Source of the DNA: Candidatus Binatus sp.
GTDB taxonomy: Bacteria > Desulfobacterota > Binatia > Binatales > Binataceae
Length of the DNA stretch: 64,000 nucleotides
Direction of reading: 5' to 3'
Assembly (NCBI RefSeq): GCF_030646925.1
Contig: NZ_JAUSKL010000122.1
Span: forward strand, 1,365 to 65,364
Both the position numbers and the translations under genes were made by a program. How positions within the stretch are numbered: the first letter of the stretch is position 1; every line of letters starts with the position of its first letter. The notes under the pieces are model-generated. The model ran no database searches, was not told the DNA's origin, and was given only the letters and a program-made list of their open reading frames with translations. Of the stretch, positions 21,828 to 29,622 are shown one piece after another.

Positions 21828-22172
21828 TCAAGTGTTTTCCTTGCCGTACTTGAGCACTTGCACTTTTTCGACGGTGATCAACCCCGAACTCTTGCCCATC
21901 ATTTCGTCCAGCACCGGCAGGAACGCATCGATTTTATCCTTGCCATCCACGACCTCGATTATGATCGGCAGATCTTCCGATAGCCGCAGAAGTTTCGCCG
22001 AATGAAGCTGGCTCGATTTGCCGAAGCCGAGCGGACCGCGGAGCACGGTCGCACCCGCGACGCCGACTTCGCGCGCCTTCATCACGATCGATTGATAAAG
22101 CGGCTTGCCGTCGAAGCGTTCGTTTTCGCCGATAAACACCCGGAGCAGGATCGCATCTTTCGGAATCTGCAT
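21828..22172 (-). CDS. DUF190 (PII-like) protein commonly paired with crcB
   Basis: Starts MQIPKDAILLRVFIGENERFDGKPLYQSIV. Lies immediately downstream of crcB. Confidence 0.75.
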   Translation of the reverse strand: MQIPKDAILLRVFIGENERFDGKPLYQSIVMKAREVGVAGATVLRGPLGFGKSSQLHSAKLLRLSEDLPIIIEVVDGKDKIDAFLPVLDEMMGKSSGLITVEKVQVLKYGKENT

Positions 22173-22180
22173 CGCTTTAC

Positions 22181-22567
22181 TCACTGACTGAGAGTTGCAG
22201 CCATCACATGGCCGAGCCACACAAAAATCAGGCACAGCGCGACGGATCCGGCGGCGTTCAGCGCGGCCGGTATCAACTCGCCGTCACGCAGCAGGTTGAG
22301 CGTCTCGAGCGAGAAGGTCGAAAAGGTCGTGTAGCCGCCGCATATTCCGACCATCACGAATTGGCGCGCCGGCGTGCCGACAATGAAGCGCGAGTCGGGT
22401 CCGGAAAACGTCGCGAAAAATCCAATCACGATCGAGCCGGTGACATTCACGAACATCGTGCCGTACGGAAACGCGCCGCCCGTCATCGCCGCGATCACGC
22501 CCTGCGCAAAATATCGCGCCATCCCGCCGAGCGCGCTGCCAATGCCGATCAGCAAATACGCGAGCAC
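22181..22567 (-). CDS. crcB: fluoride ion channel CrcB/Fluc
   Basis: 128 aa, four TM segments. GGMARY...GTMFVNVTGS...GGYTTFSTF motifs. Confidence 0.9.
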   Translation of the reverse strand: MLAYLLIGIGSALGGMARYFAQGVIAAMTGGAFPYGTMFVNVTGSIVIGFFATFSGPDSRFIVGTPARQFVMVGICGGYTTFSTFSLETLNLLRDGELIPAALNAAGSVALCLIFVWLGHVMAATLSQ

Positions 22568-24787: not shown

Positions 24788-24823
24788 AAATAAATACGGC
24801 GCAGCCCTCGATTGGGCTGCGCC
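24788..24823 (-). terminator. Rho-independent terminator after the selenoprotein gene
   Basis: Perfect 10-bp stem GGCGCAGCCC/GGGCTGCGCC (24798-24823), followed on the minus strand by GTATTTATTT. Confidence 0.7.
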
Positions 24824-24873
24824 GCAATGATTGCCGCGGGACCGCAGCTTGCCCGCGATCCCAAAGATCAGCG

Positions 24874-25395
24874 CTAATTTCTAAGCGCCGCGATCACGTC
24901 GTTCACTATTGCGTCGGCCTTCGCGCGCATCTCGTCATCGTTCGCATCCTGAATCGGATGCGGCACGAACACGCGCCGCACTTCCGGCAATCCGAGCGCT
25001 TCGGCCTGGCGCTGTGCGGCATCGACGAACGTGCTCGACGCGATTACTACCGAGGGCTTGCCATTGATCTCGAACCATACTGAATCGTGCACACTGCACG
25101 TTGTGCATGACCCTCAATCGGCTAGCGCTTCGATAACGAAGTCGCTTTCCTCCGCAATACGGCGGCGCAGATCGTCGGGCGCCGGCTTGGTGAAAGTTGG
25201 TTTGCGAAAACGCTTGATCTCGATTCCCGGCAGGCGGTCCTGCAGATGCTCCGCGAGCCGATCGATCAACACGTTGCCGCGCGGTTTCGCGATATCCAGC
25301 AGCGCGACGCGTCCGCGAATCGAATCGGTGCGCTTCGCGAGCGTGCGCCGAATCGGTACGCGCTCGTCAGTTGGATCGATGATCACCTGTTTCAT
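24874..25395 (-). CDS. UGSC-motif selenoprotein (in-frame UGA at 25114-25116 read as Sec)
   Basis: Track ORFs 25114..25395 and 24874..25092 share one frame and are separated by a TGA plus 7 sense codons. Read-through gives ...VIEALAD-U-GSCTTCSVHDSVWFE. A hairpin lies directly 3' of the UGA. Confidence 0.65.
25085..25110 (-). promoter_or_regulatory. candidate bacterial SECIS hairpin
   Basis: RNA UCAUGCAC-AACGUGCAGU-GUGCACGA begins 4 nt after the UGA: an 8-bp stem with one A-C mismatch. Confidence 0.45.
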
Positions 25396-26996
25396 GGAGC
25401 CTCCTCGATACGCCGGCTGACGCTCGACGATCCCATCGGACCCGAGACCCAGCCGGCGAATACTGCGGAAAATTTTCCGGCCTCGCCGCCGGCGACGATC
25501 ATATTGATATTCTCAGGCTTGCGAAACTTCGGAAGCTTCGTTGCAAGTTGCTCCGCGGTCGGATTGGTGAAGCCGAGCGCTTTCGGCGGCACGCCTTCGC
25601 CGCTCTCGGCGTCGGGCATCAGCTCGCGCAGCGGTCGCGACGTGATCTCCTGGATGCGCGCGCGCACCTGCGCCTTGCTCCATTTGTCGCGCGCGATCGT
25701 GTCCACGTGCTCCGGCGAAACGACCAACAGGATCTCGCCGCTGCCGTGCTGCTTCGGATGCCAGCATGCTTCGAGCCCGAGCCCGATACTGCCGACCAGC
25801 GCGTGCGCCGTGCGCGACATCTGGTCCGCGATCTGCCGCGAGCCCGCCTCGAGCCCGAACACCGTCACCACGTTTTCCTCTTTCTTGAAGCCGCGCTCGA
25901 CGTGCAGCGGCTCCCACGCGCTCCGCTCCTCCCATTCGGCGAAGCAGGTGGTGAATTTGCCGATCGCGCCCAGCGTCGAGCGCTCGATTTCGCCCGGCCG
26001 CGCGCCGCCAACGTTGCGCAGCACGAGTTTCAGCGCGCGCCCGATCGTCGCGTTCGCGCGATTACCGTAGCCGAGTGCCATCATGCCCATGTTCATGCCG
26101 AGGCGATGCCGAATCGGGCCGTTCACGACAATCACCGGCGTCGCGCCCCACGTCGTCGCCATCACGCCGTGGATATTGAACTCGTCGGTGCAGACCGCCT
26201 CGAGCGCGGCAATCACGACCGGCAGATGCTCGGGCTTGCAGCCCGCCATCACCGCGTTCACCGCGATTTTTTCGACCGTCACCGGCGCGAGATTCGGCGG
26301 CACCGTCGCGACGACTTCGCGCGGATCGCGCCGCGTCCCGGTCAGCATGCGCATCACGCGCTCGGGCGTCGGCGGCACCACCGGCAGGCCGTCGGTGAGT
26401 CCGCGCTCAAACATGAACTCGAAAACGTCTTCCGAATCGCCCAGCTCGATTCGCCGCGCCGTCAGGAATTCACCGCGCGCCGCGGCTTCAAGTTTTTCAG
26501 CGACTCCTGGTTCCACTGACTTCGAGCCGCATCCCGGCCGCGACTCGGGGTATTCATTCCAATTGATCGATGGCGCGTCGGTGCCAGCAATTCGACTCAA
26601 CTCGGCGAACATCTCGCGCCAATCGTCGCGGCCGAAGCCGATAAATCGCCGCTGCTCGACGCCGTTGGCATCAGCCAGAATGATCGTCGGCACCGTGTCG
26701 AGATCGTACGCGAAAGAAACCGCGAGCGCCGAGTCATCGAGCATCGGCACGCTGAGCGCGTAGCGCTCGACCAGCTTCGCGTTGCCCTCGGCATCCTGTC
26801 CGATCGAGAGCACGTCGAGCTTTGCGCCAAATGCGCGATGGGCCGCTTCGATCAGCGCCATGCTCATCCCGCAGGTGGGGCAGTCTTCCTTGACGAAACA
26901 CAGCAGCGCCGCGCGGCCCGTGGGAAACGAACGCTCCGCATTCTGAGCGTCGGCTAAGTTGAATTGCGGGAGCGGGCTTGTCGATGACTCTGGCAT
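25392..26996 (-). CDS. thioredoxin-fold (CPTC) domain fused to an uncharacterised roughly 400-aa domain
   Basis: 534 aa. N-terminal LLCFVKEDCPTCG in a Trx-like context. I recognise no family for the C-terminal region. ATGA overlap with the selenoprotein gene. Confidence 0.6.
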   Translation of the reverse strand: MPESSTSPLPQFNLADAQNAERSFPTGRAALLCFVKEDCPTCGMSMALIEAAHRAFGAKLDVLSIGQDAEGNAKLVERYALSVPMLDDSALAVSFAYDLDTVPTIILADANGVEQRRFIGFGRDDWREMFAELSRIAGTDAPSINWNEYPESRPGCGSKSVEPGVAEKLEAAARGEFLTARRIELGDSEDVFEFMFERGLTDGLPVVPPTPERVMRMLTGTRRDPREVVATVPPNLAPVTVEKIAVNAVMAGCKPEHLPVVIAALEAVCTDEFNIHGVMATTWGATPVIVVNGPIRHRLGMNMGMMALGYGNRANATIGRALKLVLRNVGGARPGEIERSTLGAIGKFTTCFAEWEERSAWEPLHVERGFKKEENVVTVFGLEAGSRQIADQMSRTAHALVGSIGLGLEACWHPKQHGSGEILLVVSPEHVDTIARDKWSKAQVRARIQEITSRPLRELMPDAESGEGVPPKALGFTNPTAEQLATKLPKFRKPENINMIVAGGEAGKFSAVFAGWVSGPMGSSSVSRRIEEAP

Positions 26997-28884: not shown

Positions 28885-29622
28885 TTACCCGGCGAAGATC
28901 GGTCCTTCAACGAAGGGCAGAATAGCCAGTTTCACGTTGAGCGCTACCGTTCGGAACATCTCGGCGGTCGACGCTGGGATCGGCACTTTTGCGAACATGA
29001 TCACGGCAAAAAAGTTTCCCTCGGGCAATACTCCGCCGAAACCTAGGACGGACTCGACATGATTCGGTACCACGAAATCCTTTTGGGCCGGAATGTATAG
29101 ACTGTCCTTCGCGGGTTCAACATAAAACACGTTGTATGTTTTTCGGTCCATCTCTTTGATGATTTCGGGCTTCGGCTCCAGGAGGATATTCACTTCGAGA
29201 CCGAATTGCCTGACCAACTGGGCGATCATCGGAACTTGTTCAAGCGCGTGCAGGCTCGGCAGCGGAATTGCTCGGTGGTGGCGTGACTCTTGAGGATGAT
29301 TCCACTCCGGTCGATCGCCGGCGGTGCCGAGCAGCGTTAAGCACTTGACTGCAGACCCCAACGAAACGCCGGGCATCATCGAACGGCTAAACTCCTGCAA
29401 CTGCGGCCCGAGGTCGCCGTAAGGATGCGTCTTGAAGAATCGTACCAGAACACAACAGCGTTGACCCGAGTCGGAATAACCAAGCCGTTCATAGAGATAG
29501 CGGACAATCCCGACTGCGGCCTGCTCCATGCTCTTTGATTCCGAACCAAATCGCCGCAACTCGGCGCCGCAGCGGGTCATATCAGCAAGCGTGAATCGCT
29601 TCAGATCATACATCTCAGACAT
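28885..29622 (-). CDS. uncharacterised 245-aa soluble protein, putative input partner of the kinase
   Basis: Clean ORF 46 nt upstream of the kinase. No family recognised. Confidence 0.5.
   Translation of the reverse strand: MSEMYDLKRFTLADMTRCGAELRRFGSESKSMEQAAVGIVRYLYERLGYSDSGQRCCVLVRFFKTHPYGDLGPQLQEFSRSMMPGVSLGSAVKCLTLLGTAGDRPEWNHPQESRHHRAIPLPSLHALEQVPMIAQLVRQFGLEVNILLEPKPEIIKEMDRKTYNVFYVEPAKDSLYIPAQKDFVVPNHVESVLGFGGVLPEGNFFAVIMFAKVPIPASTAEMFRTVALNVKLAILPFVEGPIFAG

Follow-up and report, generated by a model that had tools for sequence, protein, structure and literature searches.

The minus-strand stretch 24874..25395 of the window, by which we mean the whole 64,000-nucleotide piece of DNA analysed here, carries two short open reading frames (ORFs) separated by a UGA. 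The question raised by this arrangement is whether the first ORF simply ends there, or whether the UGA is read as selenocysteine (Sec) and both ORFs belong to one gene whose product has a role of its own. Taken as a whole, the locus is very probably explained by a single gene of the UGSC selenoprotein family, with a flavodoxin-like product that would serve as the selenium-bearing subunit of a two-part enzyme; this reading draws on sequence comparison and structure prediction. The features discussed below are collected in Table 1.

Table 1. Positions of the features at the UGSC locus and the basis on which each was assigned.
Feature	Position	Strand	Basis or detail
UGSC-family selenoprotein gene	24874..25395	-	173 codons + TAG; NF041046, PF24696, AF2 pLDDT 95
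Sec codon UGA, residue U94 of U-G-S-C	25114..25116	-	TGA/TGC alignment column
Conserved SECIS hairpin	25084..25102	-	covariation, bSECIS consensus
Alternative hairpin of the earlier note, UCAUGCAC / GUGCACGA, 10-nt loop	25085..25110	-	excludes the conserved hairpin
Shine-Dalgarno-like GAGGAGG, 4 nt upstream of the UGSC ATG, within the end of the partner gene	25400..25406	-	sequence
Intrinsic-terminator-like hairpin, then TTTATTT	24795..24826	-	13 pairs, 10 G-C; closes the two-gene unit
Partner gene, 534 aa, thioredoxin-like + ~340-residue UGSC-partner domain	25392..26996	-	tblastn, HMM
Thioredoxin-like (AhpC/TSA, Redoxin) domain of the partner	26634..26975	-	PF00578 28 bits, PF08534 24.4 bits
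UGSC-partner domain, residues 180-534	25395..26459	-	alignments A4 and A6

Gene structure, family and the in-frame UGA

Translation of the locus gives a single reading frame that opens with an ATG at 25395..25393, closes with a TAG at 24876..24874 and contains one in-frame TGA. The two ORFs of the track (25114..25395 and 24874..25092) lie in this common frame with their starts 303 nt apart, and only the TGA and seven sense codons (GSCTTCS) stand between them; the "M" with which the second ORF begins is an internal GTG seven codons past the TGA. The read-through product has 173 residues (...DFVIEALAD-U-GSCTTCSVHDSVWFEINGKP...), and the stretch at the Sec reads ...DFVIEALAD-U-GSCTTCSVHD.... The earlier note had proposed just such a split gene, with its shared frame, internal GTG and 173-residue product, and all of this holds in the sequence. 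So do its coupling to the upstream gene, where an ATGA at 25395..25392 makes the UGSC ATG overlap the TGA stop of the partner gene, and its terminator, a hairpin with a T-rich tail that follows the gene. Neither the locus nor the whole 64-kb window yielded an Rfam family at threshold, and the sub-threshold matches, which overlap the terminator, were judged to be due to chance. Elsewhere in the window, the genes for a CrcB fluoride channel and a DUF190 protein overlap (21828..22567, minus strand); Rfam scanning gave no fluoride riboswitch at threshold anywhere in the window.

The read-through protein scored 162.1 bits against NF041046, "UGSC family (seleno)protein" (cut-off 125; residues 29-172), and 163.8 bits against PF24696 (cut-off 25; residues 5-171), the latter match running across the TGA and both ORFs. 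In a genome-level search, the locus scored 156 bits with "1 TGA" inside. The motif D-U94-G-S-C97 falls at the conserved column of the UGSC family. The family name given in the earlier note therefore exists as NF041046, and the read-through protein is a member above both curated cut-offs. As judged from sequence, 24874..25395 is confirmed as a known, named UGSC-family selenoprotein gene, a reading that is correct but ordinary as a discovery.

The "UGSC-containing protein" of Zhang and Gladyshev, which entered the literature in 2007 (PMC1976440), is a bioinformatically defined selenoprotein family of unknown function. In the Global Ocean Sampling data it was among the selenoprotein families of greatest abundance, at 255 Sec versus 21 Cys forms (PMC2398784), and it was still classed as uncharacterised in a 2026 review (PMC13188914). 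Hyphomonas neptunium is on record as a carrier that can be cultured. The locus resembles the family in its size of about 175 residues, in the U-G-S-C column and in its full-length scores, and shows no defining difference from it; Sec forms far outnumber Cys forms here, as they did in the ocean survey.

If the UGA were instead a true stop, the locus would consist of a gene of 93 residues and, after it, a 72-codon ORF that is unrelated or in decay, as in a pseudogene or a split gene. This is how the public gene calls have it: they end at the UGA, and the 93-residue piece falls in a "hypothetical protein" cluster of 451 members, in a collection in which the read-through form was not found. Nor did any long protein with a UGSC domain turn up in a protein database search at E<=0.001, probably because gene calls split the Sec forms at the UGA.

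The homologues argue strongly against a true stop. Our sample comprised 61 genomes, namely the window's own (4.58 Mb, 126 contigs) and 60 relatives, and PF24696 was present in 42 of them. Full-length matches in the relatives contained exactly one TGA in all but two copies, the exceptions being a copy in relative G036 with two TGA and a Cys form in G044 with none. When 69 copies were realigned, the same column held TGA in 68 (42 genomes) and TGC, encoding Cys, in the remaining one (G044), and such a TGA/Cys pair in one column is a classical signature of Sec. The homologues thus continue past the UGA, the family HMMs cross it, and the 72-codon segment downstream is kept in frame. Among 22 genus-level orthologues, codon changes after the UGA numbered 579 at third positions versus 175 at first and 150 at second positions, to be set beside 673 versus 276 and 141 before it, and the other two frames downstream are full of stops. 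This third-position excess, together with the stop-rich alternative frames, indicates that the downstream segment is translated in the read-through frame, and the codons past the UGA are under in-frame purifying selection. In addition, a SECIS hairpin just past the UGA covaries, as described in the following section.

The machinery for Sec incorporation is also present in the window's genome, which encodes selA (580 bits, TIGR00474), selB (334 bits, TIGR00475, or 365 with its C-terminal piece), selD (383 bits, TIGR00476) and, on contig C76, a tRNA-Sec that both ARAGORN and RF01852 (74 bits) detect. The selD gene (G000:C114:64690-65616, plus strand) has one in-frame TGA of its own, and its product is probably itself a selenoprotein. 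These comparisons show, or at the least strongly support, that the UGA of the UGSC gene encodes Sec, and they leave termination at this codon a very improbable reading. In annotation, a single selenoprotein gene should take the place of the two "hypothetical" ORFs.

The SECIS hairpin

The earlier note had placed a SECIS-like hairpin directly after the UGA, and this proved to be the right stretch; the pairing that it drew, however, shows no covariation, and a different core covaries instead. In this core, CGUGCA (25100..25095) pairs with UGCACG (25091..25086) around a GUG loop (25094..25092), giving a stem of 6 bp here and of 8 bp in most homologues. Covariation was assessed in a gap-free alignment of 50 distinct sequences that ran from the UGA to +47 nt and in which the hairpin occupies columns 15-33. 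The conserved hairpin reached a covariation score of 0.274 versus 0.113 in shuffles, with none of 500 shuffles scoring as high, and controls in which the pairing was slid fell well below it. Pairing was retained in 87% of cells, compensatory changes were seen in six of the eight pairs, and cells with double changes numbered 34 where 10 were expected. In one such compensation, a change of Cys UGC to Trp UGG is matched by a synonymous change of Val GUG to GUC. Synonymous compensating switches of this kind point to the RNA, rather than the protein, as the target of selection. The lone Cys-form homologue, in G044, is without the hairpin.

The published consensus for bacterial SECIS elements specifies a loop of 3-9 nt with a G in its first two positions, a stem of 4-16 bp, a distance of 16-37 nt from the UGA to the loop, and a minimum free energy of -7.5 kcal/mol or lower (PMC13188914, Fig. 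2A). The element at this locus, which like those of the consensus lies inside the coding region directly past the UGA, agrees with it in having a 3-nt loop that starts with GU, a stem of 6-8 bp and a UGA-to-loop spacing of 19 nt. With respect to energy, the core alone comes to -7.4 kcal/mol here and passes only with its lower stem; the minimum-free-energy fold of 50 nt contains the conserved hairpin and has -13.9 kcal/mol.

The hairpin originally drawn, in which UCAUGCAC pairs with GUGCACGA, can form at this locus at about -9.3 kcal/mol and would compete with the conserved one. As a candidate for the conserved SECIS it was rejected: 458 of 500 shuffles reached its covariation score among the 50 homologues, and under the bacterial SECIS rules its loop lies too near the UGA and is without a leading G.

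The partner gene and its pairing with UGSC

The gene immediately upstream had been described as a thioredoxin-fold gene. It does have a thioredoxin-like N-terminus, but the description is incomplete, as this part is fused to a conserved UGSC-partner domain. The thioredoxin-like domain carries the motif C39-P-T-C42 (26882..26871, minus strand), which is kept across the genus and three other families, and its matches in a PDB sequence search were to thioredoxin and ResA; the same search with the partner gave nothing beyond these N-terminal matches. Partner residues 143-534 matched no Pfam or NCBIfam family even at E<=10. Several motifs are nevertheless near-invariant among partner sequences, namely DGLP..PPT, NAVMAGC, NGP, ANATIGRA, E.E..PWEP and VAGG, with the near-invariant Cys253 (26240..26238, minus strand) lying in NAVMAGC. 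Among named sequences, those nearest to the partner protein belong to genomes that bear the label Candidatus Binatus or Binataceae.

Fusion of some UGSC proteins to a conserved domain, "Unknown_1", has been in print since 2008 (PMC2398784), and a partner with a thioredoxin-like CPTC domain of its own, as found in this lineage, goes beyond that printed description. A natural fusion from relative G038 gave an AF2 model with a pLDDT of 91.7 and a pTM of 0.90; in a Foldseek search of this model against the PDB, the flavodoxin-like half was matched and the partner half found no match. Aligning UGSC-only, partner-only and fused sequences together (A3) put about 26 residues of each UGSC sequence and about 12 of each partner sequence in the wrong place; this alignment was dropped, and A4, made from the fusions and trimmed partner sequences, was used instead.

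The pairing of the two genes extends well beyond this locus. In the fetched loci, as judged by tblastn and HMM, the partner domain adjoined 66 of 68 UGSC genes on the same strand, lying upstream in 46, downstream in 14 and fused in frame behind UGSC in 6. Across the 61 genomes, the domain profiles found both in 42, neither in 17, and partner fragments at contig ends in 2. Where a genome holds several copies, the copy numbers of UGSC and partner are equal (12/12, 6/6 and 7/7). Pairwise distances of UGSC and partner were correlated over 42 diverse pairs (r=0.86; 0 of 999 permutations as high), which argues that the cassettes duplicate and diverge as units. UGSC and its partner therefore co-occur strictly one to one, a rule that may hold only for this class. 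The association and the fusion were already known, so that the locus adds support and detail to them rather than a discovery.

Within the genus and beyond it, the pair is the sole recurring unit. None of the flanking genes at the locus, which encode a hybrid histidine kinase, a 245-residue ORF, a GT9 heptosyltransferase and LpxD, is a conserved member of this unit; the GT9 gene recurs outside the window's genome only once, downstream of the pair in one genome of the same genus. Pfam gave no match to the 245-residue ORF (28885..29622, minus strand), whose position is upstream of the hybrid histidine kinase, and this ORF does not recur beside the pair. No substrate-related genes were found to be kept near the pair in the relatives.

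Some relatives carry many cassettes. Four from the same class (G038, G043, G051 and G059) hold 6-12 diverged UGSC-partner cassettes each (loci L044-L079), several of which cluster within about 26 kb, for example L050 and L051 at G038:C35:9355-39556. Such numbers suggest that the family has expanded over many substrates. A few copies are irregular. At L069 (G036:C21:123965-131931) there are two tandem cassettes, with one partner broken into several frame pieces and a UGSC copy that has two TGA, and at L017 (G051:C197) a frameshift divides the partner. Such copies are probably either in decay or the product of misassembly.

Predicted fold, proposed function and comparison with known systems

An AF2 model of the UGSC protein, built from 50 homologues, has a mean pLDDT of 95 and a pTM of 0.88 and shows a five-stranded parallel alpha/beta sandwich, (beta-alpha)5. 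In this model Sec94 lies at the end of strand 3, between the strand of residues 86-92 and the helix of residues 95-110, which it caps at the N-terminus, and Cys97 lies one turn beyond it, a predicted geometry that suits a selenenylsulfide redox couple. A Foldseek search against the PDB returned flavodoxin-like folds with TM-scores of 0.45-0.5 and a probability of about 1.0 among the 50 matches listed, and a PDB sequence search with the UGSC protein gave nothing meaningful. The five-stranded parallel alpha/beta/alpha topology of the model is common to flavodoxin, the FMN reductase MsuE and WrbA; the identity of UGSC to flavodoxin-like proteins is 10-16%, no flavin-binding motif was identified, and the likeness is at the level of the fold only. 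A likely Trx-like fold had been suggested for UGSC in 2008 (PMC2398784), whereas the fold predicted here is flavodoxin-like, and no thioredoxin was among the 50 Foldseek matches listed.

This difference in fold bears on what the protein does. UGSC could be a free-standing thiol or selenol oxidoreductase in a thioredoxin-like role, with the partner as its client or maturation factor and only regulation shared between them. A UxxC motif at the N-terminus of a helix would be in keeping with such a role, as would the fold guessed in the literature, but the predicted fold is not the one that it calls for. The equality of copy numbers even at 12 paralogues per genome, the co-divergence of the two proteins and the six natural in-frame fusions are also difficult to reconcile with it, since a general reductant would need no private partner for each paralogue. 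We consider a free-standing oxidoreductase unlikely.

The more likely role of UGSC, as we infer it, is that of a redox subunit that brings the selenium to a two-part reductase. UGSC would be the small, selenium-carrying part, and the partner domain of about 340 residues, encoded upstream and translationally coupled to it, would be the other part. The partner would bind the substrate, possibly by means of the near-invariant Cys253, and Sec94 would attack or reduce it. A Se-S bond between Sec94 and Cys97 would form as a result and then be re-reduced; in this lineage that step would fall to the partner's own fused thioredoxin-like CPTC domain.

Alternatively, the pair might serve as a carrier, transferase or lyase for selenium or sulfur and reduce no organic substrate. 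The conserved Cys of the partner and the Sec-x-x-Cys of UGSC would both fit this, and so would the lack of substrate-pathway genes kept nearby. Up to 12 diverged paralogous cassettes in one genome, however, point to many substrates rather than to one housekeeping role in trafficking, and the local similarity of UGSC is to GrdB and PrdB, which are selenoproteins of reductases. Selenium or sulfur handling is in our estimation even less probable than a free-standing oxidoreductase.

Beyond the two-part reductase itself, it is conceivable, and we advance this only tentatively, that UGSC and its partner represent an unrecognised class of two-component selenoenzymes, in which a GrdB/PrdB-like Sec subunit is combined with a catalytic subunit whose fold has no solved relative, in substrate-specific cassettes of which a genome may hold up to 12. 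If so, the version found in Candidatus Binatus would be self-contained, with CPTC, catalytic and Sec modules in one coupled two-gene unit, and would be a convenient form for reconstitution. UGSC is abundant in aquatic metagenomes and has been without a known function since 2007, and this lineage offers a three-module system in which to assay it.

The proposed logic resembles that of the selenoprotein B subunits of glycine reductase and D-proline reductase, and the comparison can be followed at the level of sequence. An hhalign comparison of UGSC with PF07355, the family of GrdB (glycine/sarcosine/betaine reductase) and PrdB (D-proline reductase), aligned the Sec columns over 49 positions with a probability of 62% and an E-value of 7.6e-5; the read-through protein by itself had no match to PF07355 at E<=0.01. 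The likeness is local and of moderate probability, and we regard it as suggestive.

Genes that may be of this kind occur in the window's own genome outside the window. Three of them (G000:C7:24731-25117, C95:3364-3765 and C93:16614-17012, all on the minus strand) match the C-terminal part of GRDB (PF07355), and each runs into an in-frame TGA that is followed by about 100-125 in-frame codons. They read ...FYLVPA-U-PVCHQSVG..., ...VMVPG-U-PLDHQTVG... and ...VLVPA-U-PLDHQTVG..., and the TGA was kept in 20 of 20 copies examined in relatives (19 PrdB-like and one full-length GrdB). From their sequences they look like PrdB/GrdB-like selenoproteins, which would likewise be split in an ORF track.

There are differences between the two systems. 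The UGSC partner, which has no Pfam match at all, is not a relative of GrdE and PrdA, which are pyruvoyl proproteins, and, unlike in the glycine reductase system, no GrdA, GrdC or GrdD genes are present. The surroundings of the Sec are nonetheless alike. In GrdB and PrdB, as in UGSC, the Sec comes right after a hydrophobic beta-strand and is followed by x-x-C/T, a helix and then a "G-I/V-P-T" strand, which in UGSC reads "G-I/V-P-T-V". The GrdB of relative G046 has ...DAVILTST-U-GTST...AGIPVV and PrdB-like proteins have ...FFLVPA-U-PVCH...AGIPTL. Finally, GrdB and PrdB are small Sec subunits that work beside a larger substrate-binding subunit, and this is the arrangement that we propose for UGSC and its partner.
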